From Klebsiella phage HMGUkp2, in sequence record PV683292.1: a stretch of DNA of 64,000 nt; one strand, written 5' to 3'. This document shows, piece after piece, positions 6,903-23,634 of the stretch. Positions within the stretch are counted from its first letter, which is position 1. Every line of letters begins with the position of its first letter. The notes beneath the pieces were generated by a model. That model searched no databases and was not told the origin of the DNA. It saw only the letters and a list, made by a program, of their open reading frames with translations. Made by a program: the position numbers and the translations under genes.

Positions 6903-7471
6903 GTTTATTCTTTTTTGATGATGAACCGGAATACAATGAGCACCAAATCGCATGGCTGACTAAGGATTGGTCAGCAGTCCAGAAATGTGCAGATCAATTT
7001 AAAGAATCTCCTGAAAGTGAGTTCTTTAGATTAATAAACGCAATCAATGACACTAAGCAACAAATTAATGTGTCGCAAATGGACTACAGCAAATTCATGA
7101 TTGAAAATGCCTTAAGCCAACATGCTGAATGCATGCCAGCGGTTTATGTAATGAACTTAGTAGGACAAGGTCTCTCAGACCAAGCACACTTTAACTACAT
7201 GAAACACGCCGTTCCAAAAGGTAAGCGATACGGTAAGTGGGCTAAACTAACTGAAGATTCGAATAAAATGCTTATACTTAAAGTAATTCAAGCATTTTAT
7301 AAAATCAACGTCTATGATGCTGATATGTATCATAAGACAATGTTCGCTAAAGGTAATCTACTTTCTTTCTTAAAACAGGCTAAAGCTCTTGTTACAGATG
7401 AAATGGTTAAGAGCATTACTAAAAATGTGAAAGAACAAAAACAACTCAAAAAACAAGCATTGGAATGGTAG
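6893..7471 (+). CDS. 62: clamp loader small subunit gp62, 192 aa
   Basis: Overlaps the gp44 stop. Size and position as T4 gp62 (187 aa). Confidence 0.8.
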   Translation: MEMSLFFFDDEPEYNEHQIAWLTKDWSAVQKCADQFKESPESEFFRLINAINDTKQQINVSQMDYSKFMIENALSQHAECMPAVYVMNLVGQGLSDQAHFNYMKHAVPKGKRYGKWAKLTEDSNKMLILKVIQAFYKINVYDADMYHKTMFAKGNLLSFLKQAKALVTDEMVKSITKNVKEQKQLKKQALEW

Positions 7472-7473
7472 GT

Positions 7474-7842
7474 ATGATTGAAATTACATTAAAACAGCCA
7501 GAAGATTTTCTGAAGGTTAAAGAAACCCTTACTCGTATGGGTATTGCTAATAATCGTGATAAGGTATTATATCAGAGCTGTCACATTCTTCAGAAGCAAG
7601 GTCTGTACTATATTGTTCATTTTAAAGAAATGCTAAAACTGGACGGTCGCCCTGTGGTTATGACTGAAGAAGATGAACAGCGACGTGACTCAATTGCTTG
7701 GCTACTTGAAGACTGGGGTCTGATTGAGATTGCCCCAGGCCAGCGTACATTAATGCACGAAATGACTAATAACTTCCGTGTTATAGGATTTAAGCAGAAA
7801 TCCGAATGGACCCTGAAATCTAAGTATACTATCGGTAGTTAA
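7474..7842 (+). CDS. regA: translational repressor RegA, 122 aa
   Basis: MIEITLKQPEDFLKVKETLTRMGIANNRDKVLYQSCHILQK is near-identical to T4 RegA, and the length is the same. Confidence 0.9.
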   Translation: MIEITLKQPEDFLKVKETLTRMGIANNRDKVLYQSCHILQKQGLYYIVHFKEMLKLDGRPVVMTEEDEQRRDSIAWLLEDWGLIEIAPGQRTLMHEMTNNFRVIGFKQKSEWTLKSKYTIGS

Positions 7843-7852
7843 AGATTAAGCA

Positions 7853-7874
7853 ATGGGACTTCGGTCCCATTTTG
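7853..7874 (+). terminator. rho-independent terminator (atgggac-ttcg-gtcccat-TTTT)
   Basis: 7-bp stem with tetraloop and T-run, after regA. Confidence 0.55.
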
Positions 7875-7925
7875 GAGTATAATTCATTCACCAAATAAAA
7901 GACAATTACTCGTCTAAGGAACCAA

Positions 7926-10634
7926 ATGAAAGAATTCTTTTTAACTATCGAACAGTTAGGCAACACCATTCACGAGAGATACATCGATTCAAATGGGGTT
8001 GAACAAACTCGTCAGATTGATTATAAACCAACCCTGTTCTATCATTCTGATGTTGAATCAAAGTACAAAGATATCTATGGAATGAATTGTAAGAAAAAAC
8101 GATTCCCGGATATGAAGGAAGCTCGTAACTGGATTCGTAGAATGGAAGACATCGGGCAGGATGCAATGGGCATGGATGACTTCAAGCTGGCCTATTTGTC
8201 TGACAGGTACCCAGGTGAAATTCATTTTAACCCGGCGTTAGTTCGCCAGTGTAACTATGACATCGAAGTAACAGCACCGGAATTTCCAAAGCCTAATGAA
8301 GCCAAGTATCCTATCGATGCGTTAACTCATTACGATAGTATTGCTGATAAGTTCTATGTGTTTGACCTTCTGAATTCTCCTTATGGTAAAGTATCTAAGT
8401 GGGACCCGGTACTAGCCGGTAAGCCTGAATCAGAAGGTGGTGATGAAATCCCTCAGGATATTCTCGACCGAGTTGTTTATCTGCCGTTTGATAACGAACA
8501 AGAACTTCTTCTCGAATACCTGAATCTGTGGGAACAGCAGACACCTGTTATTCTGACAGGCTGGAACGTAGAAAGTTTCGATAACCCGTACGTTTATAAT
8601 CGACTGAAGAATGTGTTTGGTGAAAAGACTGCTAAACGTTTAAGCCCTCTTCGTAAAGTCAATAGCAAAATTATTGCCGACACCTTTGGTGATGAGCGTG
8701 AAATTATCACACCGTTGGGTATCAGTGTTCTTGACTACCTAGATTTATATAAGAAATTTAGTTTTACGAACCAGCCTTCGTATCGCCTTGACTACGTAGC
8801 TGAGTATGAACTTGGTGTAGGTAAATTAGAATACGACGGACCTATCAACAAACTTCGTGAAACTAACCACCAACGATATATTTCGTATAACATTATCGAC
8901 GTTGCTCGAGTACAACAAATCGATAAAAAACGTCAGTTCTTGAACCTGGCGTTAGATATGGCTTATTATGCTAAAATGCCGATGCAGTCTGTGTTCAGCC
9001 CTATTAAGACTTGGGATGCAATCATCTTTAACTCTTTGAAGAACGACAATAAAGTCATTCCTCAGAAAAAGCACCACATTCCACAAAGTTATCCAGGTGC
9101 ATATGTTAAAGAGCCTACTCCTAATAGTTACAAGTACGTTATATCTGCTGACTTGACATCTCTGTATCCAAGTATTATTCGACAAGTTAACATAAGCCCG
9201 GAAACTTTGCACGGCCAGTTTGCTGTTCGACCTCTTCATGAATATATCGCTGGGACCGCTCCAAAACCGAGCGAAGAATACTCTTGTTCACCTAACGGTT
9301 GGATGTATCGTAAAGATATCGATGGTGTCGTACCGGTTGAAATTAAGAAAGTTTTCGACCAGCGTAAACTTCATAAAGGATTTATGTTGGCTGCCCAACG
9401 TAATGCGGAACTTATTAAAGAAGCATTGCATAATCCAAAGAGCACTTCTGATAAATCAGAACCAACTCTTGATTACCGTTTCGATATGGAAGAAAGTATC
9501 AAGGCCCAGCTTCATGATTTGAACGAAGCTATCTTGTTGAGTATGCTTGATAAAGCAACTCGTACTGAAGTAGCCGGTATGACTGCACAGATCTGTCGTA
9601 AACTACTTATCAACTCGCTTTATGGTGCACTTGGTAACGTACACTTCCGTTATTATGACCTTCGTAACGCAACGGCAATCACTTTGTTTGGCCAGTTGGC
9701 ACTGCAATGGATTGAACGACGAGTGAACGAGTTCTACAATGAAACACTGAAGACTGGTAACCATAAGTATGTTATCTATGGTGACACAGACTCAATTTAT
9801 ATGTGTGTAGACCCATTAATTGAGAAGATTGGTGAAGACAAGTTCCGTGACACGAACCATTTAGTAGACTTCTTAGATAAGTTTGCTAAAGAAAAATTAG
9901 AGCCAGCTATTGGCCGTGCATTCCAAGATATGTGCGACTACATGAACAACAAAGAACAGCTGATGTTCATGGACCGAGAAGCTATTGCTTGTCCTCCGTT
10001 AGGTTCTAAAGGTCTTGGTGGTTTCTGGACTGGTAAGAAGCGATACGCTTTGAACGTGTATGACATGGAAGGGACTCGATATGCGGACCCTAAAATGAAA
10101 ATTATGGGCCTTGAAACACAGAAATCAAGTACTCCTAAAGCATGTCAGAAAGCGTTGAAAGAATGCATCCGTCGTATGCTTCAAGAAGGTGAAAGCTCAT
10201 TACAAGACTACTATAAAGAGTTTGAACAAGAATTCCGTAAGCAGCACTATATGACTATTGCTGGCGTTAGTTCTGCAAACAACATCGCCCAGTACGACGA
10301 TAACGGTTATCCAGGATATAAGTGCCCGTTCCATATTCGTGGAATCCTAGCTTATAACCGTGCAACCAAAAACATTCCTGATGCAGAAGCAATTGTCGAA
10401 GGTTCTAAAGTAATGGTACTCCCATTACGGGACCAGAACCCATTCGGTGATAAATGCATCGCATGGCCGTCAGGTACTCAAATTAATCCTGCTATTCGTG
10501 AAGATGTATTAAAATACCTTGACTATTCGACTTTGTTCCAGAAAACGTTTGTTAAACCGTTGTCTGGGTTTACCACGGCGGCTAGAATCAATTATGAACA
10601 TGTCGCGACCTTAGATGATATCTTAGGGTGGTAG
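7926..10634 (+). CDS. 43: DNA polymerase gp43 (family B), 902 aa
   Basis: Exo and pol motifs are present (FDIE, YGDTDS, KILINSLYGALG). It is collinear with T4 gp43 (898 aa) and RB69 gp43 (903 aa), and closer to the RB69 type. Confidence 0.95.
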   Translation: MKEFFLTIEQLGNTIHERYIDSNGVEQTRQIDYKPTLFYHSDVESKYKDIYGMNCKKKRFPDMKEARNWIRRMEDIGQDAMGMDDFKLAYLSDRYPGEIHFNPALVRQCNYDIEVTAPEFPKPNEAKYPIDALTHYDSIADKFYVFDLLNSPYGKVSKWDPVLAGKPESEGGDEIPQDILDRVVYLPFDNEQELLLEYLNLWEQQTPVILTGWNVESFDNPYVYNRLKNVFGEKTAKRLSPLRKVNSKIIADTFGDEREIITPLGISVLDYLDLYKKFSFTNQPSYRLDYVAEYELGVGKLEYDGPINKLRETNHQRYISYNIIDVARVQQIDKKRQFLNLALDMAYYAKMPMQSVFSPIKTWDAIIFNSLKNDNKVIPQKKHHIPQSYPGAYVKEPTPNSYKYVISADLTSLYPSIIRQVNISPETLHGQFAVRPLHEYIAGTAPKPSEEYSCSPNGWMYRKDIDGVVPVEIKKVFDQRKLHKGFMLAAQRNAELIKEALHNPKSTSDKSEPTLDYRFDMEESIKAQLHDLNEAILLSMLDKATRTEVAGMTAQICRKLLINSLYGALGNVHFRYYDLRNATAITLFGQLALQWIERRVNEFYNETLKTGNHKYVIYGDTDSIYMCVDPLIEKIGEDKFRDTNHLVDFLDKFAKEKLEPAIGRAFQDMCDYMNNKEQLMFMDREAIACPPLGSKGLGGFWTGKKRYALNVYDMEGTRYADPKMKIMGLETQKSSTPKACQKALKECIRRMLQEGESSLQDYYKEFEQEFRKQHYMTIAGVSSANNIAQYDDNGYPGYKCPFHIRGILAYNRATKNIPDAEAIVEGSKVMVLPLRDQNPFGDKCIAWPSGTQINPAIREDVLKYLDYSTLFQKTFVKPLSGFTTAARINYEHVATLDDILGW

Positions 10635-10695
10635 TATAGATTAGGCCAGGCCCTAAAGTGATTCTAGGGCCTCGCTTTAATTATTATGTAGTATA

Positions 10696-12390
10696 ATGGC
10701 TCCGTCAACAATTGAGGAACACAAAATGCGTAAAGTAGTTATCTTAGGTGCCGGTCTTGGGTCTCGCTTATATCCAATTACCAATGAGATCCCTAAAGTG
10801 CTTGTAAACTATAAACAGCACACAGTTTTTAAACACCTGGTTGATTTGTATAAAAATCAATCAGATGAAATTATTCTAGTAATTCATAGTAAATTTGATG
10901 GGCTAGTTCGTGGATACATGAAGTCGGTTGGAATAAGCGATATCACCATTCGCCATGTTGATGTATCCATAGGTTCTGCACACGCTATTGATTGTATTGC
11001 TGATGATATCGTAGGACACAACGTACTATTCAACTGGTGTGACATTATTCCGGAAGGCCACAAAGTAGAATGGGGTAACGATTATTGCTATACCTTTGGT
11101 ACAGATTGCCGTTTCACTTTTGAAGAACCGTATTTTCGTGAAATTGGGACAGGTGGCGGTGTGGTTGGCCTGTATCAAGTAGCTAAATGGCCCGGGTTCT
11201 GTTCTTTTGAAGGCAACTACGGTGAAGACCTTGCCGACAATTTAGATTCTATGGTTTATATGACCGAGCGTAAGCTAGAGGCAGTCATTGACATCGGCGA
11301 TAAGATTAAATTGGCCGAAGCACATAAAACCTCTGAGATTAATCGTGACTTTAACAAGCTCAAATTTACAGATCAACACGCTATTAAAATCCCGACTAAT
11401 GAGTATGGTAAAGAAATTCAAGCTAAAGAGCTTAAATGGTATAATTCTGTACAATCGAAATTTATTCCTACTATTGTAGATTTCACACCAGGCGAATTTA
11501 TTAAAATGGAACGAATCTACGGTAAAACCATGGCAGATGCGTACCCTCTGATGACCAAAGATACCCAAGTATTAATGGTATATAAAGTAATCAGTGCTCT
11601 GAAATCATTAGGCGGCGATATCTATATTCCTACCGACGAACAGTGGTACGCGGACGTTAAGAAAGAAGTTCTTGATAAGGTATTAATCCGCAACGATTCT
11701 ATTAAAGAACTTTTAGAAGGGTTTGCACCTGAAGGCATTACCCATGTTAATGATTTTAAAGTAGGTAAGCCAGAAAAACTGCTGGAACACGCATTAGAAA
11801 TTCTATCCGAGCATAAAGAACCGTACCAGTTGATTCATGGGGACCCGCATTATTCTAACATTATGTTTACTGATTCGGGTGATATTAAAATTATAGACCC
11901 GCGTGGATATTTTGGTAATAGCCAATACGGCCCTACCATTTATGATGAAGCTAAAGTGCTTTATTCTATTGATGGGTACGATAAATTTAATGCAGACCCA
12001 CTATGGGGCGGTATTTCTCGGAATGGCACTAGGCTGTTTGTCGAGATTGAGAAAGTAATGCCGTTAGATGATATTCCTATGTGTACCTTTAAGCATAAAC
12101 TGTGGATTGCTGTTATTTGGATGGCTTTAGCAGGCTATTTCAAGAACAATCCGCTTAAGGCTATTGGCGCTTATTATCATGGTCTATATCAGCTGAGTGT
12201 GCTGCTTAAAAGTCAGCCTCGTAAACGCAAACTTATCGATGGCACAGAAGTAACTGAAGTTAAAGACCCTATCACAGCTTCTATTATTACCAGATGCCCT
12301 GATAAATGGGAACTGCTTGATAAAGAAACTGGTGTAAAATATAAACCAATTGGTGGTAACATCACCCATCAGTGGGAACGAATTGGGTAA
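10696..12390 (+). CDS. bifunctional sugar-1-phosphate nucleotidyltransferase (N-terminal) / APH-choline-kinase-fold sugar kinase (C-terminal), 564 aa
   Basis: N-terminus ILGAGLGSRLYPITNEIPKVLV is the G-x-G-[ST]-R-x-P-x-T-x(3)-P-K signature of RmlA/LicC/MurU-type NTP transferases. C-terminus LIHGDPHYSNIMF...IKIIDPRG is the HGDxxxxN plus IID catalytic core of AmgK/LicA/APH kinases. An alternative start at 10726 (MRKVV) is possible. Confidence 0.7.
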   Translation: MAPSTIEEHKMRKVVILGAGLGSRLYPITNEIPKVLVNYKQHTVFKHLVDLYKNQSDEIILVIHSKFDGLVRGYMKSVGISDITIRHVDVSIGSAHAIDCIADDIVGHNVLFNWCDIIPEGHKVEWGNDYCYTFGTDCRFTFEEPYFREIGTGGGVVGLYQVAKWPGFCSFEGNYGEDLADNLDSMVYMTERKLEAVIDIGDKIKLAEAHKTSEINRDFNKLKFTDQHAIKIPTNEYGKEIQAKELKWYNSVQSKFIPTIVDFTPGEFIKMERIYGKTMADAYPLMTKDTQVLMVYKVISALKSLGGDIYIPTDEQWYADVKKEVLDKVLIRNDSIKELLEGFAPEGITHVNDFKVGKPEKLLEHALEILSEHKEPYQLIHGDPHYSNIMFTDSGDIKIIDPRGYFGNSQYGPTIYDEAKVLYSIDGYDKFNADPLWGGISRNGTRLFVEIEKVMPLDDIPMCTFKHKLWIAVIWMALAGYFKNNPLKAIGAYYHGLYQLSVLLKSQPRKRKLIDGTEVTEVKDPITASIITRCPDKWELLDKETGVKYKPIGGNITHQWERIG

Positions 12391-12413
12391 TCCCAGTTCG
12401 TAATTAAGATGTT

Positions 12414-12436
12414 GAGGAGGCTAAAGCCTCCTCTTA
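12414..12436 (+). other. intercistronic hairpin (gaggaggc-taaa-gcctcctc)
   Basis: Perfect 8-bp stem between the NTase/kinase gene and the HAD gene, with a weak T tract. Confidence 0.4.
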
Positions 12437-12453
12437 AACTATAAGGCCTATTA

Positions 12454-12813
12454 ATGAATCTCTGTTTCGACATCGACAACACAATCACGATATGGAATAG
12501 CAACCGTGATTATCTGAATTTTGAGCCGGACCCAGAAATGGTGGCCATAATTAACAAGCTCTATGATGAAGGCCACGAGATAACCTTGTATACGGCCCGT
12601 GGTATGACCTCTTGTGGCCCTGGTCGAATTCTGACTGAAGTGGTCCCGGCTCTTGTAAAGAACCTTGAAAAAATTGGACTGAAGTATCATAACCTGCTTA
12701 CACATAAACCAAGTTATGATTTTATTATTGACGACCGGGCAATTCGTCCTGATCACTTTAAGAAAATGATTCAAGATGGCACATTTGAAACATACAAGGC
12801 GTATCATCCATGA
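12454..12813 (+). CDS. minimal HAD-superfamily phosphatase, 119 aa
   Basis: All four HAD motifs are present: FDIDNTIT (DxDxT), TLYTAR, HKP (Lys), DFIIDDR. The size suggests a cap-less GmhB/KdsC-like sugar-phosphate phosphatase. Confidence 0.65.
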   Translation: MNLCFDIDNTITIWNSNRDYLNFEPDPEMVAIINKLYDEGHEITLYTARGMTSCGPGRILTEVVPALVKNLEKIGLKYHNLLTHKPSYDFIIDDRAIRPDHFKKMIQDGTFETYKAYHP

Positions 12814-13373
12814 GTCCTAAAATTATTGTTGTAGACGGCCCTGATAATTCAGGGAAGTCTACTTTAATTAACAAGTTACTTAATAATACTAATTTTAAGC
12901 TTATTGATTTTCCTAAGAAAATTAACGGCAAGTGTATTTCTATAGGCACCGATAACGATAAGGCTTTAGTAGAGACCTTATATAAATTTTTAGACCCTAA
13001 TTTCGTCTACATCTTAGATCGCGGTTATCCTAGTAATATTGTTTACTCTGGATTTCTTCGTGGCGAAATGGACCCGTTCGAAGAACTTAAAGACTGGGAA
13101 GAATTCAAAGAAGAGTTCAATGTCATCGAGGTTATTTTAACTCGCAATCCGTTGGACGAGGACTTTGAAGACGATCTTATTAAGCTGACTAAGGATGAGT
13201 TCAATATGACTATTCGTCAGTATGAAACCCACTTTAAGAACGTGTTCAAGATTCTTAATCATGACGGTAAGAATAATCTGCTTAACGTAGATACAGTAGA
13301 ATTAAAACGTTTGAACGGCTATATTAATTATGAGGTTAGTAAACGAAACGCATTACAAAGGCCTCTACATTAA
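12810..13373 (+). CDS. P-loop kinase, thymidylate/deoxynucleotide-kinase-like, 187 aa
   Basis: Walker A VDGPDNSGKST, and a downstream ILDRGYPSNIVYSG resembling the DR[YFH] motif of the dTMP-kinase family. Start overlaps the HAD stop. Confidence 0.5.
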   Translation: MSPKIIVVDGPDNSGKSTLINKLLNNTNFKLIDFPKKINGKCISIGTDNDKALVETLYKFLDPNFVYILDRGYPSNIVYSGFLRGEMDPFEELKDWEEFKEEFNVIEVILTRNPLDEDFEDDLIKLTKDEFNMTIRQYETHFKNVFKILNHDGKNNLLNVDTVELKRLNGYINYEVSKRNALQRPLH

Positions 13374-13523
13374 TTACTGACGGCAAAGCTATATACTATG
13401 ATTAATTCAAAACCTTAATGAATAAAGGTGAATTTGAATTTTTAATCTTATAACCAAACTTATAAAAATAATTTAAAGTAAGACCTGCAAAAACCGTCGC
13501 GTCAGTTAACAACGAGATGCAAA

Positions 13524-14684
13524 ATGAATATTTTTAAAGTAGGAACAAATTTCGATTTAGCTTTGTTGGATAAAATTGTAGAACTCAGCAAAAAATATCC
13601 GAACAGCCTTATTAACGAGGTATACGGCTCTACTAGAGAAATGGCCTTCATCGCAGCAAGGCCTGATTTCAGATTACCTGATGTCGGGAAGTCTTTTCTT
13701 GAAGAGTATGTCAAGCGCTGTAATGAACTAGGAATCTGTTTTAATTATACTTTTAACACAATAAATCCAGGTTCAAAACGAGAACTTGATGAATGGAAAA
13801 AGAAAGCTATTCAAGAGTACGTTCAGTATCTTTGGTCTATAGGTGTTTGGCGTATCACTATAGCTAACCCAGTTGTAATGGAAATTGTTCGTGAAGTCAA
13901 TAAAGAGATTGAGATCGAAGTTTCAACTATACTTCATATTGATGCCGTGACTCAAATCAAATATCTTCACGACCAATACAACATTAAGAAAGTGTGTTGT
14001 GGAATTCATAAGAACCGGTCTGTTAACTTCTTGAAGCAGGCCGCGGCGTTTTGTAATGAAAACGGAATTATTTTTGAAGTCCTTGTTAACGAGTTCTGTT
14101 CTAACGCCGGAAAAGGTTATACAACTCACTGCAGTTATCGTGACTCTTGTTATATTTTCCATAGCACAGATGTTACAGCTGACGATGCTAAATCCTTAAA
14201 TGGCTATCCGATGCAACACTGCATTAAAGCTCGAGACACTGATCCGTTTAACTGGTTACGAACTCGCTTTGTTCGCCCGCAAGACCTGCATCTGTACCGT
14301 GACATCGGTATCACACAGTTCAAAGTTTCTGGACGTACTGGCTCAACTGAGTACATTATGAAGGTCCTTGAGGCGTATTCTTCAGAGAAGTTTGAAGGTA
14401 ATCTTCTTGAGCTGTGGAAACCTCTCGAAACCATCTACAATGGCGAATCAGATGCTAACTATAGCCATACCGTGAACATCGAAACATCGCTGTTAGACGG
14501 CTTTCTTGAAAAACGTTGGTTCAAACATCCTACGTTTGATTGCGCTAATGAAGTCTGCGGCAGTACTTGTACTTACTGTGAGCGTTACTATAAGCGTCAG
14601 TTATCTAAAAATGACCGCCCGCTGAATTCTATTCAGATCGTAGACGTTACCAGTTCAGACGACGAACTTCGTTACCCAGAATAA
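13524..14684 (+). CDS. 386-aa protein with U32-family-like features (RlhA/TrhP/UbiU-type TIM barrel with Cys cluster). Function unknown.
   Basis: N-terminal pattern EVYGS..ARPDF....FLEEYV..C.ELGI.FNYTFNTIN resembles the U32 N-terminus. EVLVNEFCSNAGKGYTTHCSYRDSC resembles the U32 signature E-x-F-x2-G-[SA]-[LIVM]-C-x4-G-x-C. The C-terminus has an additional CxxxCxYC cluster. Assignment is from memory only. Confidence 0.35.
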   Translation: MNIFKVGTNFDLALLDKIVELSKKYPNSLINEVYGSTREMAFIAARPDFRLPDVGKSFLEEYVKRCNELGICFNYTFNTINPGSKRELDEWKKKAIQEYVQYLWSIGVWRITIANPVVMEIVREVNKEIEIEVSTILHIDAVTQIKYLHDQYNIKKVCCGIHKNRSVNFLKQAAAFCNENGIIFEVLVNEFCSNAGKGYTTHCSYRDSCYIFHSTDVTADDAKSLNGYPMQHCIKARDTDPFNWLRTRFVRPQDLHLYRDIGITQFKVSGRTGSTEYIMKVLEAYSSEKFEGNLLELWKPLETIYNGESDANYSHTVNIETSLLDGFLEKRWFKHPTFDCANEVCGSTCTYCERYYKRQLSKNDRPLNSIQIVDVTSSDDELRYPE

Positions 14685-14686
14685 GC

Positions 14687-14708
14687 AAAGAGGCTTAGGC
14701 CTCTTTTA
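14687..14708 (+). terminator. terminator-like hairpin (aaagaggc-ttag-gcctcttt + TT)
   Basis: 8-bp stem and T-run, followed by agtatataat (a -10-like element) upstream of gene 42. Confidence 0.45.
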
Positions 14709-14727
14709 GTATATAATAGGATTTTTA

Positions 14728-15441
14728 ATGTCAGAGCACAACAGAATGAAACATATTTCATATCCGTCTTTCCAGACCGCATTCAAAGTACTGAATGAAG
14801 AGATTCTCAACAATCCGCAGTTCGTTATTGATTCTCGTATTGGCCGTTGTAATGAAATCGGTTCTGCTTCAATTGAAGTAACCGATCCGACAACGTTCAA
14901 ATTCACTGATCCTCGTATCAACCGCATTAGTTATGAATATGCCGAAGCCTTCTGGCAATTCATGATTTCTGGTGGTACTGATGCTGCTGAAGCATTTAAG
15001 GAATACCCGAATGTTGCTAAGTTCATTGATAAGCCGAAAAGTGACGTACTGCCTGCAAACTTCAACACTTTCTATGGGCCTCGAATTGCTGCCCAGCTCC
15101 CAGCCTTACTTAAAGAGCTTAAAGAAAAGGCTAACTCGCGACGGGTTGTATTCCAAATTCTTCAAGAGAAAGACCAAGCACTGTTAGATTCAGATGAATC
15201 CCTCGAATACCCGTGCACAGATTCTATAACATACTATATCCGTGAAGGCAAGCTTTATGCCCATACACATATGCGTTCACAGAACTGTGCTGTAGTGATG
15301 CAGCTGGACTTTTATCTGCAAGGCAAGTTAATGCAATACATTGCAGATCAATGTGGTGTACAATTAGGTACGTATTCTCACACTATGGTTTCAGCCCACG
15401 TCTTTGAACGTGATTTTGATTATGTAAGAGGTTTTATCTGA
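14728..15441 (+). CDS. 42: dCMP hydroxymethylase gp42 (thymidylate-synthase fold), 237 aa
   Basis: YPCTDSITYYIREGKLYAHTHMRSQNCAVVMQLDFYLQGKLMQYIADQ aligns with T4 gp42 FMCTNTVQYLIRDKKINAVVNMRSNDVVFGFRNDYAWQKYVLDKL. It is distinct from td, which is elsewhere in the window. Confidence 0.8.
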   Translation: MSEHNRMKHISYPSFQTAFKVLNEEILNNPQFVIDSRIGRCNEIGSASIEVTDPTTFKFTDPRINRISYEYAEAFWQFMISGGTDAAEAFKEYPNVAKFIDKPKSDVLPANFNTFYGPRIAAQLPALLKELKEKANSRRVVFQILQEKDQALLDSDESLEYPCTDSITYYIREGKLYAHTHMRSQNCAVVMQLDFYLQGKLMQYIADQCGVQLGTYSHTMVSAHVFERDFDYVRGFI

Positions 15442-16337
15442 TGGCTTATTTCCGTGTACCAATCTTTAGTATGCGAAGCTATGAAACTGGTGAATACGCC
15501 GTCCTTAAGGACGGCAACTTCCAGTTACATTTGAATCGTGCTAGTGCTGGTGATATCATCGCGGTTCCACGTAATGCAAGTGATATCGAAGAGTGTAAAG
15601 AACTATTCCCAGAGTTTGAATTTGTCCCTCTTTGGTACAAGGAAAATGCTTATGAAACTCGTAAACATTTCTGGGAAGAAAATCAGTTTATAGTTGATTC
15701 TTTAGTTGATTACTACGACTGCTCTTATCTAGTGACAGATATTACTGGATATCAAGGCAAACACGAGGTATTCTTTGTTTTTAATATAACTAAAGACCCT
15801 GAGAATCCTCGGTATTATATTGACGAGTTTATTGACATTGACGTTGAATCTGTAAACAAGTCTGTAGCAACGTTTGTTCTTAATCATGGCCAGAAAGACG
15901 TTCTCGTAGCGGCAGGTGCAATTCCGGGCCGTATCTTTGTAGATCAACGGGTCATTAAGCCGAGTGTCATGGAACGTTATACGGAAGGCCTGGAACCAAT
16001 CCACCTTGATGGTATTTTTCATCCATTCCGTATCAGCGATCCGTGTTATCGTTTCGACCAAGTTGTCGAATGCGCTATTGCAGCAGATAGCGTCTTGTAT
16101 ATCACAGACCCGAACATGAGTTTCAAACGTGAACTGTATCCTGAAGAAGCAAAGATCCATGTTCTTCGTCTGTCTAAGAAAGAATACTATCAAGTACTAA
16201 TGGGTCGACCGACTATCCAGTACTTTGAAGACCCTGAAAAAGTGTTTCACCCTGGGTTAGCAGAGTTTATCTATTTTAATGCTAAAATAAATTCTCCATA
16301 TAATATTCCTGCTTATAACCATGTGGTAATTAATTAA
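15441..16337 (+). CDS. hypothetical 298-aa protein in the beta-gt position. Candidate hmC-modifying transferase.
   Basis: ATG overlaps the gene 42 TGA (TGATG), indicating translational coupling. T4 has beta-glucosyltransferase at this locus. No GT motif was recognised by eye. Confidence 0.3.
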   Translation: MAYFRVPIFSMRSYETGEYAVLKDGNFQLHLNRASAGDIIAVPRNASDIEECKELFPEFEFVPLWYKENAYETRKHFWEENQFIVDSLVDYYDCSYLVTDITGYQGKHEVFFVFNITKDPENPRYYIDEFIDIDVESVNKSVATFVLNHGQKDVLVAAGAIPGRIFVDQRVIKPSVMERYTEGLEPIHLDGIFHPFRISDPCYRFDQVVECAIAADSVLYITDPNMSFKRELYPEEAKIHVLRLSKKEYYQVLMGRPTIQYFEDPEKVFHPGLAEFIYFNAKINSPYNIPAYNHVVIN

Positions 16338-16361
16338 TAAGTTTATTTTGTAAACCAGGCG

Positions 16362-16401
16362 GTTTACAATGGTGTAGGAGCGTGTTAAAGTGTTCCTACA
16401 C
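16362..16401 (+). promoter_or_regulatory. early promoter plus inverted-repeat cassette (PeSL-like): GTTTACA-N17-TAAAGT with dyad ggtgtagga/tcctacac
   Basis: A -35 GTTTACA and a 17-nt spacer. A 9-bp perfect inverted repeat flanks the -10. It is one of about 12 paralogous cassettes. Confidence 0.55.
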
Positions 16402-16415
16402 ATTTGGAGAAAACT

Positions 16416-16856
16416 ATGAAACTTAAATCAATTATAGTACTGTCTGCATTAACTCTTACTGGCTGTGCTCAGACTGAAGGATACCCGTATCGTCTTTCTG
16501 ATGTAGGTACAATCTTTACTGTTGGTGGTAACAATATAGGTTATGTCCGTAACGCAAATGCTAATCAGGTTCACTATTCTAGCGACCATGAAGAAGCAAT
16601 GGCTATGAAACGAGAACATGACGCCAAGATGGATGCCATAATCGCCGGTGAGCAAGCAAAGCAACCTAAAAACTCACCATTCAAACGACAGTGTGAAATC
16701 AACTGGAAACTGGATGAAGCCGTACTTCAGCAGCGTTTAATGAATTCTTCTATTCATAACTACGAAGCTAACTATAAAGCCCTGAACAACCATAGGCTGG
16801 CTGCTTATTCCAAAGTGGAAAAGTGTATAGCTAAGGCTGAAGCCAAAGCAAAGTAA
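16416..16856 (+). CDS. lipoprotein (LTGC lipobox), 146 aa
   Basis: MKLKSIIVLSALTLTGCAQ is a signal peptidase II lipobox. Lies downstream of a PeSL promoter with SD ggagaaaa. Confidence 0.6.
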   Translation: MKLKSIIVLSALTLTGCAQTEGYPYRLSDVGTIFTVGGNNIGYVRNANANQVHYSSDHEEAMAMKREHDAKMDAIIAGEQAKQPKNSPFKRQCEINWKLDEAVLQQRLMNSSIHNYEANYKALNNHRLAAYSKVEKCIAKAEAKAK

Positions 16857-16953: not shown

Positions 16954-18123
16954 ATGTCCGATTTGAAATCTCGCCTGATTAAAGCTTCTACCACTAAACT
17001 GACCGCTGATCTGACTAAATCAAAATTGTTCAATGATCGTGATGAAGTTATGACACGAATTCCTATGCTGAACATCGCATTAGGCGGTAGCTTGAATAGT
17101 GGTTTACAAAGTGGCTTAACAATCTTTGCTGCACCATCCAAACACTTTAAAACTCTGTTTGGTCTGACTATGGTTGCTGCATATATGAAGAAATATCCGG
17201 ATGCGATTTGTCTGTTCTACGACAGCGAATTTGGTGCTTCTGAAAGTTATTTCCGTTCAATGGGTGTTGACCTGGAACGTGTTGTCCATACTCCGATCCA
17301 GTCAGTTGAACAACTGAAAATTGATATGGTCAATCAGCTGGAAGCTATCGAACGCGGTGACAAGGTGATTATGTTCATCGACTCTATCGGTAACACAGCC
17401 TCTAAGAAAGAAACACAAGATGCTTTAGACGAGAAACAGGTCGGTGACATGACTCGTGCTAAATCTCTTAAATCTTTGTTCCGTATCGTTACGCCTTATT
17501 TGACGATTAAAGATATCCCTTGTGTGGCTATTAACCATACAGCTATGGAAATCGGCAGTATGTATCCTAAAGAAGTTATGGGTGGTGGTACCGGCATTCT
17601 TTATTCTGCAAGTACCGTATTCTTTATTTCTAAACGTCAGGTTAAAGAAGGTACTGAACTGACCGGGTATGATTTTACTCTTAAAGCCGAGAAATCTCGT
17701 ACGGTCCAAGAGAAATCTACGTTCCCGATCACTGTTAACTTCAAGGGTGGTATCGATCCGTTCTCTGGACTGCTTGAACTGGCCACAGAAATTGGCTTTG
17801 TTGTTAAACCTAAAGCAGGCTGGTATTCTCGTGCTTTCTTAGACGAAGAAACTGGTGAAATGGTTCAAGAAGAAAAGTCATGGCGTGCTAAAGCCACAGA
17901 TGACGTAGAATTCTGGGGTCCTTTGTTTAAACACAAGCCATTCCGTGACGCAATCGAAACAAAATATAAACTCGGTGCTGTTTCTTCTATTAAAGAAGTT
18001 GACGATGCGGTTGCTGATCTGTTATCTTCTAAACCAACGTCTAAAATTCCGGTAAAAGCCAAATCAGCTCCTAGTGCTGCTGACATTGAAGACGAACTGG
18101 AAAATTTCGCTGATGAAGAATAA
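16954..18123 (+). CDS. uvsX: recombinase UvsX (RecA-like), 389 aa
   Basis: Size as T4 UvsX (391 aa). RecA-like Walker A region (AAPSKHFKT) and an acidic C-terminus. Lies upstream of 40 and 41. Confidence 0.9.
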   Translation: MSDLKSRLIKASTTKLTADLTKSKLFNDRDEVMTRIPMLNIALGGSLNSGLQSGLTIFAAPSKHFKTLFGLTMVAAYMKKYPDAICLFYDSEFGASESYFRSMGVDLERVVHTPIQSVEQLKIDMVNQLEAIERGDKVIMFIDSIGNTASKKETQDALDEKQVGDMTRAKSLKSLFRIVTPYLTIKDIPCVAINHTAMEIGSMYPKEVMGGGTGILYSASTVFFISKRQVKEGTELTGYDFTLKAEKSRTVQEKSTFPITVNFKGGIDPFSGLLELATEIGFVVKPKAGWYSRAFLDEETGEMVQEEKSWRAKATDDVEFWGPLFKHKPFRDAIETKYKLGAVSSIKEVDDAVADLLSSKPTSKIPVKAKSAPSAADIEDELENFADEE

Positions 18124-21971: not shown

Positions 21972-22253
21972 ATGAATAACACCCAGCACGCACTTCTTAA
22001 GTTATCAGAAGAGTGCAATGAGGTAGCACAGATTTGCTCTAAAATTATGCAGTTCGGCTTCGACTCCGAATATGACGGTAAGACCAACAGAGAACGTCTA
22101 ACTGAGGAGCTTAACGATATTCTAGGGGCTGTTCTAAATTTGACCCTAGAAACTGACTTCAGGTTCTCTGAAGACGTGGATGCTAAGTGGGCCAAGGTAG
22201 ATAAAATGATTCGCTACAGAGAAATCTCTAAAAACTTAGGTTTTGTTCAATAA
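21972..22253 (+). CDS. small MazG-like all-alpha NTP pyrophosphohydrolase, 93 aa
   Basis: LLKLSEECNEVAQ...EELNDILGAVLNL..DVDAKW resembles the MazG/HisE EEXXE/D helix pair. Confidence 0.4.
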   Translation: MNNTQHALLKLSEECNEVAQICSKIMQFGFDSEYDGKTNRERLTEELNDILGAVLNLTLETDFRFSEDVDAKWAKVDKMIRYREISKNLGFVQ

Positions 22254-22312: not shown

Positions 22313-23074
22313 ATGAAAACTATCTTAACTGCAATTGCTTTAACTATCGCTTCCTTTTCAGCTCAAGCTGCTTCATTTGACTGCTCTAAAGCTTCTACTA
22401 AAGTAGAAAAACTGATTTGTTCAGATGCATTAGTTTCTGACTTGGATTCGAGCCTTAACAAGGTTTATAATTCAATCAAAGAAAAGCCTGTTGAAGACCA
22501 GCGGGCTTGGATTAAAAATGTCAGAAACAAACAAACTACTGTAGAAGGTCTTGCATACGTTTATGCTTCCCGTATAGAAGAACTCGCTAATAATGAAAAG
22601 TACGAGTATACTGTAGTAGATATGCCTAAAGAGCCAGTGAAAGAAGTTAAAGAAGTTAAAGAAGTTAAAGAAACTAAGCCTAAATCCATAGTAGACAACT
22701 TAAAAGAACATGTGGCTAAAGGCTATATCGAAGCTGATGGGCGCAGAATTTCTTTAGAAGTCTTAGACAAGTTCGGCGATACCTATTTGGACCGGTGTAA
22801 CATAAAAATGGCTTATAACCAATTTGAGCGGATCGAATCTGAAGTTTACCGTTCGGCCCCTATTAGGGATGTTGCATGGCTTGATGCAAATAAAGAAGCT
22901 ATTGTAATAGCTTTAGCAAACACTAGTACTGCGCTTATTGAAACGCCGGAAGATGAAGCTTCTTTCCTAGATGCATGCAAAGACCTATTTAAGAAAGAAG
23001 AAGCCCGGTTAGAAAAAGAAAAAGAAAACCGGCGTTTGACTGAAGAGTTCTTTGAAAACGCTAAAAAGAACTGA
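22313..23074 (+). CDS. secreted DUF1311 (LprI N-terminal-like) domain protein, 253 aa
   Basis: Signal peptide ending AQA|AS. FDCSKASTKVEKLICSDALVSDLDSSLNKVY fits the DUF1311 C-x2-A-x-T-x2-E-x2-IC-x-D motif. Internal KEVKEVKEVKE repeat. Confidence 0.55.
   Translation: MKTILTAIALTIASFSAQAASFDCSKASTKVEKLICSDALVSDLDSSLNKVYNSIKEKPVEDQRAWIKNVRNKQTTVEGLAYVYASRIEELANNEKYEYTVVDMPKEPVKEVKEVKEVKETKPKSIVDNLKEHVAKGYIEADGRRISLEVLDKFGDTYLDRCNIKMAYNQFERIESEVYRSAPIRDVAWLDANKEAIVIALANTSTALIETPEDEASFLDACKDLFKKEEARLEKEKENRRLTEEFFENAKKN
22640..22675 (+). repeat. 9-bp tandem repeat (aaagaagtt x3.5) encoding (KEV)n
   Basis: Direct reading of the sequence. Confidence 0.8.
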
Positions 23075-23118: not shown

Positions 23119-23634
23119 ATGCCACATTTTAACGAATGTAGTCAACTGATTGATGGGGTTGATAAAGCTCAGGCTGCATATGATAGCCTTATAGCAAAAC
23201 ATTCCGACCCTCTTCAAGTTATGCTTAATATGCAAAAATCTCTGCAGGTTCGTCTTGCAAATGACCGTGAATACTGCTATCATCCAGATAAATTAGAAAC
23301 TGCTGGCGATGTGGTTTCTTGGATGCGTGAACAGAAAGACTGTATTGATGATGAATTCCGTGAATTACTGACTTCACTTGGTGAAATGTCACGTGGTGAA
23401 AAAGAAGCGTCCGCAGTCTGGAAAAAATGGAAAGCACGTTATACAGAAGCGCAAGAAAAACGTATTTCCGACATGTCTCCTAAAGACCAGCTTGAAATTA
23501 AATTCGAAATGATCGATATTCTTCATTTCGTTCTTAACATGTTCCAGGGCCTAGGTATGACGGCTGAAGAAATTTTCAAATTGTATTATCTGAAGAATGC
23601 CGAAAATTTTGCCCGTCAAGACCGGGGCTATTGA
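23119..23634 (+). CDS. 56: dCTP pyrophosphatase gp56 (MazG-like), 171 aa
   Basis: Exactly the length of T4 gp56. MazG-like helices (EIKFEMIDILHFVLNMF). Lies in the conserved position after 61. Confidence 0.75.
   Translation: MPHFNECSQLIDGVDKAQAAYDSLIAKHSDPLQVMLNMQKSLQVRLANDREYCYHPDKLETAGDVVSWMREQKDCIDDEFRELLTSLGEMSRGEKEASAVWKKWKARYTEAQEKRISDMSPKDQLEIKFEMIDILHFVLNMFQGLGMTAEEIFKLYYLKNAENFARQDRGY

Follow-up and report, generated by a model that had tools for sequence, protein, structure and literature searches.

The gene 43-uvsX cassette of Klebsiella phage HMGUkp2: a probable arabinosyl-5-hydroxycytosine DNA hypermodification system that includes a U32-family protein

Klebsiella phage HMGUkp2 (sequence record PV683292.1) carries a gene cassette at positions 10,696-16,337 of the 64,000-nucleotide stretch of DNA analysed here (the window), located between the DNA polymerase gene (gene 43) and uvsX. 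This cassette very probably encodes, in its Marfavirus form, the system by which T4-like phages hypermodify their DNA with arabinosyl-5-hydroxycytosine. The steps of the proposed pathway are drawn from close homologs with published biochemistry, while the step considered for the U32-family protein is drawn from comparative genomics only. A first-pass annotation of the window had proposed a self-contained supply of activated pentose, together with a transferase, for a non-glucose hypermodification of cytosine, and this core idea is supported by our analysis.

Gene content of the cassette

Searches (tblastn) with T4 and RB69 proteins identified the window as that of a T4-like phage with the gene order 55, 47, 46, 45, 44, 62, regA, 43, cassette, uvsX, 41, 61, 56, gene 39 and rIIA. 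The flanking genes 43 (7926-10634) and uvsX (16954-18123) encode products that are 60% and 66% identical to those of T4, respectively, and the gp56 dCTPase is encoded elsewhere in the window. At the DNA level, positions 10696-16337 are 96.8% identical to Klebsiella phage Marfa and approximately 90% identical to the Marfavirus F48 group.

All six open reading frames (ORFs) of the first-pass annotation were confirmed with their coordinates (Table 1), including the TGATG overlap by which the 298-aa protein is translationally coupled to the thymidylate synthase (TS) homolog, and the gene 56 dCTPase that it had listed is indeed present. The HAD and kinase genes are joined by an ATGA overlap. Furthermore, every motif it had quoted was found where expected, and its domain calls for the fusion, HAD, P-loop kinase and U32 proteins were confirmed by profile searches against Pfam, NCBIfam and PHROGs.

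Table 1. Cassette features and the associated dCTPase gene in the window, with protein identities to the Dhakavirus Bp7 and the Mosigvirus HX01
Feature	Position	Strand	Evidence	Bp7	HX01
Nucleotidyltransferase (NTase)-kinase fusion (N-terminal sugar-1-phosphate nucleotidyltransferase, C-terminal APH-fold sugar kinase; AfhE-type)	10726..12390 (ORF open from ATG 10696)	+	Pfam, phrog_4098, homologs	80%	43%
Minimal HAD phosphatase, AfhF-type, 119 aa; predicted arabinose-1,5-bisphosphate 5-phosphatase	12454..12813	+	motifs, TIGR01689, phrog_1238	84%	66%
dTMP-kinase-like P-loop kinase, 187 aa	12810..13373	+	P-loop GPDNSGKST, phrog_761	82%	38%
Dead HAD phosphatase C-terminus fragment, in-frame stop	13373..13462	+	tblastn with HX01 HAD, E 5e-4
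U32-family protein, 386 aa, putative Fe-S; proposed prephenate-dependent, O2-independent pyrimidine C5 hydroxylase	13524..14684	+	Peptidase_U32 domain, fold	absent	88%
Perfect 8-bp hairpin, then T-run and TATAAT-like box, in the 43-bp U32/TS spacer	14687..14706
TS homolog, 5-hydroxy-dCMP synthase type, 237 aa	14728..15441	+	diagnostic residues, RB69 gp48, PDB 9iqc	85%	79-80% (HX01/RB69)
GT-B fold glycosyltransferase, 298 aa; predicted first and only arabinosyltransferase on 5-hydroxycytosine	15441..16337	+	fold	69%	69% (HX01/RB69)
gp56-type dCTPase (supplies dCMP, excludes dCTP; pathway member outside the cassette)	23119..23634	+	81% to T4 gp56 over 171 aa; Pfam dUTPase_2

Acceptor base, sugar activation and glycosyl transfer

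The 237-aa protein contains the Pfam Thymidylat_synt domain and was taken in the first-pass annotation for the gene 42 dCMP hydroxymethylase, from which it concluded that the DNA contains 5-hydroxymethylcytosine (hmC). An arabinosylated hmC was indeed proposed for RB69, the DNA of which carries arabinose and the module of which was proposed to make UDP-arabinose (Thomas 2018, PMC6024577). The Pfam match and the place next to gene 43, as in T4, would agree with such a hydroxymethylase. In order to compare diagnostic residues, the window protein was aligned with RB69 gp48, the HX01 homolog, T4 gp42 and E. coli ThyA (the ThyA reference being 100% identical to PDB 1aob). Using ThyA numbering, C146 is present in all, and two further features are common to the window protein and gp42: N177 of ThyA is replaced by D, and position 143 (L in ThyA) is acidic, being E in the window and RB69 proteins and D in gp42. 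The remaining positions separate them, as gp42 keeps the D169 of ThyA where the window and RB69 proteins have N, and W80, which is shared by ThyA and gp42 and which contacts the folate cofactor in ThyA, is A in the window and RB69 proteins.

Overall similarity points the same way, with BLASTP identities of 80% to RB69 gp48 and 23% to T4 gp42. The PDB entries 9iqc, 9ir2 and 9iqu are matched at E ~1e-131, compared to 3e-4 for T4 gp42 (1b49), and these three entries share a deposition series with 9iqz, 'phage HY126 glycosyltransferase'. A tblastn search of a phage collection with the TS homolog (1e-5) returned 411 records, none of them T4-type. D169N has been described as the diagnostic residue, all nine tested D169N homologs having made 5-hydroxy-dC, and RB69 gp48 and DLP3 gp80 have been established as flavin-bound 5-hydroxy-dCMP synthases that incorporate 18O2 (Lee 2026, PMC13326640). 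For the HY126 homolog, a flavin-bound crystal structure is reported (He 2026, as cited in Lee 2026, PMC13326640). Moreover, the hmC assignment for RB69 has been called erroneous by two later studies, one of them from an independent second group (PMC13390438; Lee 2026, PMC13326640). By these residues and matches the TS homolog is of the 5-hydroxy-dCMP synthase type and not a dCMP hydroxymethylase; with N169, 80% identity to RB69 gp48, the 9iqc match and only 23% identity to gp42, the DNA base is predicted to be 5-hydroxycytosine, with the sugar ether-linked to it, rather than hmC. Arabinosylation of hmC in this phage is therefore highly improbable, and the gene 42 assignment of the first-pass annotation was abandoned.

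The sugar branch starts with the NTase-kinase fusion, in which NTP_transferase (residues 13-106) and APH (residues 355-424) domains score above the Pfam thresholds. The protein matches phrog_4098 over its full length (E 6e-260) and Mosigvirus HX01 gp141 likewise (E 2e-150), while its PDB sequence matches are the nucleotidyltransferases 4jd0 and LicC (1jyk). The ORF opens at ATG 10696, but this codon falls within a TATAAT box and lacks a Shine-Dalgarno sequence. ATG 10726, in contrast, follows GAGGA and is the start shared by the HX01 alignment, the PHROG profile and the annotation of Marfa. The start is thus probably ATG 10726, giving 554 aa rather than the 564 aa first annotated, although the fusion itself was correctly recognized. 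The match of the HAD protein to Pfam is weak, but NCBIfam (TIGR01689, E 4e-13) and PHROGs recognize it clearly, and all four HAD motifs (DIDNT, TAR, K, DD) are present.

The phage HY126 counterparts of these two proteins have been characterized, AfhE as an arabinose-5-phosphate 1-kinase and UDP-arabinose pyrophosphorylase and AfhF as a Mg-dependent phosphatase acting on the 1,5-bisphosphate (He 2026, as cited in Lee 2026, PMC13326640). As far as it is cited there, this biochemistry matches the speculative route of the first-pass annotation, from D-arabinose-5-phosphate through the 1,5-bisphosphate and the 1-phosphate to NDP-arabinofuranose. The third enzyme, the P-loop kinase (phrog_761, E 4e-37), has HX01 gp147/RB69 gp45 as its Mosigvirus counterpart and is presumed to be a nucleotide kinase, its homolog being labelled 'nucleotide kinase' (Lee 2026 Table 1, PMC13326640).

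An arabinose-5-phosphate isomerase was sought by tblastn with RB69 gp55 and the Maestro homolog, neither of which gave a match in the 64-kb window. This gene occurs in 276 phage records, of which at most three are from Klebsiella phages although some 25 Klebsiella phages carry the cassette, and it is not universal in the cluster family, as Bp7 also lacks it. Since no phage isomerase is encoded, the likely source of arabinose-5-phosphate is host KdsD/GutQ, in line with the reliance on host KdsD that had been suggested initially.

The 298-aa protein (GT298) adopts a GT-B glycosyltransferase (GT) fold, with BshA (17.3), PimA (16.4), the HY126 glycosyltransferase 9iqz (15.0) and T4 alpha-gt (13.7) as structural matches. 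Hence, between the two candidate transferases of the first-pass annotation, the 298-aa protein is retained, while the 386-aa protein has a U32 TIM-barrel fold. In all lineages examined, the GT gene immediately follows the hydroxylase gene, and the two genes overlap or abut except in Maestro, where they are 5 nt apart. In phage Thanatos, the homolog of 15441-16337 is TH1_063 (L017 6687-7589), the published assignment of which as UDP-xylose pyrophosphorylase fits poorly with the confident GT-B fold of this family.

A second glycosyltransferase of the RB69 gp3 type is absent from the window, where the corresponding slot between gene 39 and rIIA measures only ~560 bp, and none of its 212 homolog records is from a Klebsiella phage. 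Because this lineage has no such second GT, the window DNA is predicted to be mono-arabinosylated, using host arabinose-5-phosphate. Thanatos, a single-GT phage, has mono-arabinosylated DNA (Lee 2026, PMC13326640).

Taken in order, the gp56 dCTPase would make dCMP, which the TS homolog would hydroxylate at C5 using flavin and O2, and the resulting 5-hydroxy-dCMP, once phosphorylated, would enter the DNA instead of dC. In parallel, the kinase domain of the fusion would phosphorylate C1 of host D-arabinose-5-phosphate (KdsD/GutQ), the HAD phosphatase would remove the 5-phosphate, and the NTase domain would form UDP-arabinofuranose. Finally, the GT-B enzyme would transfer arabinose onto the 5-hydroxyl, a single GT giving a mono-arabinosylated product.

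Some observations speak against this assignment, chiefly as regards the sugar. We found no published DNA chemistry of a Marfavirus or Dhakavirus, the sugar could differ because the fusion shares only 43% identity with the Mosigvirus type that has been characterized, and the Thanatos study attributes UDP-xylose pyrophosphorylase activity to the GT298 homolog. These points, together with the missing isomerase and the pentose and UDP-xylose-forming activity reported in the Thanatos paper, would suit the same architecture placing a different pentose (xylose or a deoxypentose) on 5-hydroxycytosine. Such a substitution appears quite improbable, as Gram-negative hosts make arabinose-5-phosphate for Kdo synthesis and the HAD, GT and TS proteins are 66-80% identical to those of arabinosylating phages. 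Furthermore, Thanatos DNA is reported to be mono-arabinosylated (Lee 2026, PMC13326640), and its fusion is equally distant, at 43%. We therefore retain arabinose as the predicted sugar.

The U32-family protein

The 386-aa protein scores 43.6 bits against Pfam Peptidase_U32 (PF01136; cutoff 22.4). Ten cysteines are invariant across 41 homologs with identities down to 45%; C203-X5-C209 and C233 align with the first three positions of the Fe-S motif of the family, and the C-terminus carries an extra CX4CX3CX2C motif. When the phage profile was compared to the four E. coli paralogs by hhalign, the best match was to RlhA (E 3e-5 over 205 columns), followed by TrhP (2e-3), UbiU (8e-3) and UbiV (0.15). 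A UbiU- or UbiV-like protein was considered and set aside on these weak scores (E 0.0075 and 0.15), RlhA being the best of the four. RlhA makes 5-hydroxycytidine 2501 in 23S rRNA, TrhP makes ho5U34 in tRNA in a prephenate-dependent reaction and is paired with the O2-dependent TrhO, and UbiU/UbiV are 4Fe-4S proteins that use prephenate as oxygen donor and are paired with the O2-dependent flavin monooxygenases UbiI, UbiH and UbiF (PMC5727448, PMC6599085, PMC6747719, PMC10990095).

With moderate confidence, and on the strength of comparative genomics, we propose that the phage U32 protein may be a prephenate-dependent, O2-independent pyrimidine C5 hydroxylase and may supply the precursor of 5-hydroxycytosine under anoxia. 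Such an enzyme would then be the anaerobic counterpart of the adjoining flavin- and O2-dependent TS-homolog hydroxylase. As an accessory, horizontally acquired Fe-S enzyme with prephenate as its oxygen donor, it would yield the same 5-hydroxylated base without O2, and its pairing with the TS homolog would parallel the cellular pairs of O2-dependent and prephenate-dependent enzymes (TrhO/TrhP; UbiI,H,F/UbiU,V).

The genomic neighbours of the U32 gene provide indirect evidence for a link to prephenate. In sister species such as PWKp16, a genuine chorismate mutase of the CM_2 family (E 7e-10, exceeding the Pfam cutoff) is encoded between U32 and the TS homolog, in the slot that corresponds to the U32/TS spacer of the window and its hairpin. 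Chorismate mutase was detected in 51 phage records from about 10 host genera and adjoins the U32 gene or the TS homolog in every record examined; in Thanatos, the U32-chorismate mutase pair occupies a different place within the cluster. The small ORFs found in the U32-TS slot of Mosigviruses (RB69 gp49 and HX01 gp144) were considered as diverged chorismate mutases and rejected, as they have no Pfam or BLAST similarity to this enzyme; the Mosigviruses and the window are thus without a phage chorismate mutase.

Shikimate-pathway genes accompany the U32 relatives of some metagenomic phages. In two metagenomic phage contigs of 50-107 kb (L011 and L012; 7000-17107), a DAHP synthase-chorismate mutase fusion directly precedes a 52%-identical U32 gene, which is followed by genes for DHQ synthase, shikimate kinase, a DHQase-EPSP synthase fusion, chorismate synthase and shikimate dehydrogenase, making up a nearly complete virus-borne shikimate pathway. 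A DAHP synthase gene adjoins U32 in a third metagenomic contig. Three contigs (L020, L021 and L023) have a full-length homolog of GT298 overlapping the U32 start, and it is only through these three that a related gene upstream in L011 can be linked to the window GT. A contig from a phage that is not T4-like, with Pol III alpha-type replication genes (L013, 5005-10804), encodes in order a GT298-like protein, an arabinose-5-phosphate isomerase, an NTase-kinase fusion, U32, DAHP synthase and an epimerase, with no TS homolog within 8 kb. In this cassette of the arabinosylation type, U32 takes up the place of the hydroxylase. Across 10 such loci outside T4-like phages, no TS homolog was seen in the 7-8 kb flanks of U32 that were inspected, and U32 could be the only hydroxylase there.

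Other arrangements were also observed. In L020 (6028-13179), the GT298-like gene overlapping U32 is followed by genes for a TET-associated glycosyltransferase (TAGT), a dUTPase/dCTP deaminase and UDP-galactopyranose mutase, which suggests that the hydroxyl made by U32 would receive a different sugar there. In huge-phage contigs of up to 466 kb (L010 and L014, ~7400-9900), a U32 relative lies between dCMP deaminase and a conserved protein of 248-254 aa with no assigned function, within a block that also encodes dTMP kinase, uracil-DNA glycosylase, Pol III alpha and a single-stranded DNA-binding protein; given this context, the nucleotide that is hydroxylated may contain uracil rather than cytosine.

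The distribution of the gene was also examined. U32 was found in 226 phage records, all from phages of Enterobacterales or Shewanella apart from five weak matches below 60% identity (four of them in Prochlorococcus phages). Acinetobacter is a strict aerobe, and no U32 match was found in Acinetobacter phages although 63 Acinetobacter records carry the TS-type hydroxylase; for the Maestro cluster this absence was confirmed directly. A strict rule, with U32 present in all phages of facultative anaerobes and in no others, was ruled out by Dhakavirus Bp7 and Kanagawavirus Q7622, which lack U32, so that only the Acinetobacter absence stands.

Alternatively, U32 might act on the sugar branch. Its gene lies inside the cassette between the sugar genes and the TS homolog, an epimerase-like gene is found nearby in L013 and L014, and homologs have been labelled accordingly: RB69 gp50 as 'sugar or heterocycle reductase' (Lee 2026, PMC13326640), and another as 'enzyme involved in UDP-arabinose biosynthesis' (BASEL collection, H191). 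However, Maestro and DLP3 are reported to make arabinosyl-5-hydroxycytosine (Lee 2026, PMC13326640) and have no U32, which is therefore not required for sugar activation or transfer, and the cassettes of Bp7 and Q7622 likewise lack it. In addition, no U32 reductase has been characterized, all characterized members being tied to prephenate-dependent hydroxylation, and the gene is linked to chorismate mutase and shikimate genes rather than sugar genes, or, in huge-phage contigs, sits between dCMP deaminase and replication genes. A sugar-branch role is accordingly considered unlikely.

A further possibility is that U32 hydroxylates RNA (for example host or phage tRNA U34, or 23S rRNA C2501) in the manner of TrhP and RlhA, its place in the cassette being incidental. 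All characterized nucleic-acid-directed U32 enzymes do act on RNA, with RlhA as the closest characterized relative. Nevertheless, the phage gene invariably belongs to a DNA-modification or replication module, a GT298-like gene runs into its start in unrelated phages, and its product is without the long C-terminal extensions seen in RlhA and TrhP, making an RNA substrate quite unlikely.

Hydroxylation of the DNA precursor by U32 is preferred over both, and is itself held in check by several findings. The exact CX6CX15CX3/4C motif was not found in the U32 protein, in which only three of the four positions align and the spacing differs, and the similarity to RlhA is modest (hhalign probability 72%). 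Lastly, the hosts of Bp7 and Q7622 are facultative anaerobes, so that the correlation between U32 and host oxygen use is one-directional.

The U32 gene also stands apart by origin. The cassette resembles that of Dhakavirus Bp7 in every protein but U32, which Bp7 lacks and which is 88% identical to that of Mosigvirus HX01 (Table 1). Directly upstream of U32 lies the dead HAD fragment (13373-13462), which is 68% identical to the C-terminus of the HX01 HAD protein, compared to 41-45% to those of Marfaviruses and Bp7; this is syntenic with Mosigviruses, in which the HAD gene directly precedes U32. A recent internal duplication was rejected as the source of the fragment, as it shows no DNA similarity to the HAD gene of the window itself. 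Read most simply, this means that a Mosigvirus-like donor contributed U32 to a Dhakavirus-like cassette, along with the end of its own HAD gene as a recombination scar, and that U32 is therefore a mobile accessory rather than a core component.

Although the known hydroxylase is O2-dependent, the bacteria in which these phages replicate live in the gut; a U32 hydroxylase, if true, would account for maintenance of the modification under anoxia. It would also be the first case of a U32 enzyme at work in DNA modification and of a virus using prephenate as oxygen donor, and would broaden this chemistry to include DNA and viruses. The chorismate mutase, DAHP synthase and shikimate-pathway genes of some phages would then be explained as feeding U32. 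Chorismate, prephenate and U32 chemistry are never mentioned in Lee 2026 (PMC13326640) or in the Thanatos paper, and our literature searches, with the texts of He 2026 and Mahler 2025 outside their coverage, returned no link between phage U32 proteins and prephenate or DNA hydroxylation. We regard the U32-prephenate idea as the one item worth experimental follow-up.

Neighbouring genes and comparison with known systems

A perfect GC-rich hairpin occurs in every intergenic spacer of the cassette (10640-10695, 12391-12453, 14685-14727 and 16338-16403), examples being GAGGAGGC-TAAA-GCCTCCTC and AAAGAGGC-TTAG-GCCTCTTT, and two of the four hairpins are followed by a TATAAT-like box. A promoter and terminator scan of the cassette gave 17 promoter-like sites, compared to 18.4 expected in shuffled sequence, and no operon model is claimed. 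Downstream of the cassette, in the beta-gt/segA place of T4, a 150-aa ORF (16404-16856) has a lipoprotein signal (…LSALTLTGC), no Pfam family and a match to phrog_1754 (unknown function); it is probably outside the modification pathway and may encode a lipoprotein of the superinfection-exclusion type. The second MazG-like gene of the first-pass annotation, a 93-aa ORF at 21972-22253, proved borderline (Pfam MazG 21.5 bits, cutoff 22), and its Marfa counterpart is annotated as nucleoside triphosphate pyrophosphohydrolase. At the T4 dam position between the primase and dCTPase genes lies a 253-aa ORF (22313-23074) with a weak LprI (lysozyme inhibitor) domain, and no dam homolog was found anywhere in the window.

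In GenBank and RefSeq, the cassette genes carry systematically misleading annotations. The HAD phosphatase appears as 'phosphoheptose isomerase', the glycosyltransferase as 'RNA polymerase binding protein', U32 as 'peptidase/collagenase', and the hydroxylase as 'thymidylate synthase' or 'dCMP hydroxymethylase'. This is of practical concern, as Marfa-type Klebsiella phages are therapy candidates and the predicted mono-arabinosyl-5-hydroxycytosine bears on restriction, CRISPR, type IV enzymes and DNA glycosylases. Three predictions are specific to this lineage: it lacks an isomerase, has one GT only, and carries an imported U32 but no chorismate mutase.

The system as such is already known, having been published for RB69, HY126, DLP3 and others between 2018 and 2026, and Mahler 2025 is reportedly also among the publications on it. 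The arabinose is ether-linked to 5-hydroxycytosine and not to hmC, a structure established by mass spectrometry and nuclear magnetic resonance, and Marfaviruses are named among the clades with a syntenic cluster, their modification being predicted from synteny only (Lee 2026, PMC13326640).

The first-pass annotation had also likened the cassette to the HldE/GmhB and AmgK/MurU pathways, and the likeness does extend to the kinase/phosphatase/nucleotidyltransferase logic and to the enzyme folds. The cassette is nevertheless not a member of these families, its substrate being a pentose phosphate; NCBIfam scores of the NTase domain fall far under the cutoffs (MurU 22 bits, cutoff 370; HddC 19.9, cutoff 300; GalU 22, cutoff 548).

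The contrast with T4 hmC glucosylation (gp42, alpha-gt/beta-gt, host UDP-glucose) is one of chemistry as well as gene content. The window phage is predicted to hydroxylate rather than hydroxymethylate the base, to link the sugar through an ether directly to the ring, and to make its own NDP-sugar where T4 takes UDP-glucose from the host. In T4, as the first-pass annotation stated, imm and imm.1 alone separate genes 43 and 42, and beta-gt follows gene 42; tblastn with T4 alpha-gt and beta-gt gave no match in the window, in which the TS homolog has N169 and A80.

Compared to RlhA, TrhP, UbiU and UbiV, the phage U32 protein shares the PF01136 domain, the barrel fold, conserved cysteines, three of which align with Fe-S ligand positions, a genomic link to prephenate supply, and, as proposed here, pairing with an O2-dependent enzyme for the same product. 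It differs from them in its ~20% identity, its cysteine spacing and its extra C-terminal motif, as well as in lacking RNA-binding or C-terminal extension domains; its proposed substrate is a deoxynucleotide or DNA.

Closer at hand, the Mosigvirus cluster (RB69 gp45-gp55, the Afh genes of HY126, Bas46/47) occupies the same gene 43-uvsX site and encodes the same six proteins at 38-88% identity, the fusion and the kinase being highly diverged. It additionally has an arabinose-5-phosphate isomerase, the small ORFs gp49/gp54 and a second GT (gp3) between rIIA and gene 39, none of which is present in the window, and its kinase gene follows the GT gene, whereas that of the window precedes U32. Dhakavirus Bp7 has the identical order of fusion, HAD, kinase, TS and GT genes, and the isomerase is likewise absent; only U32 and the dead Mosigvirus-like HAD fragment, between the kinase and TS genes, set the window apart. 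Hence, phage-encoded isomerase aside, the window has the following gene features of the cluster: the diagnostic TS residues, the NTase-kinase fusion with an adjacent HAD gene, a GT-B gene downstream of the hydroxylase gene, and the position between gene 43 and uvsX together with gp56.

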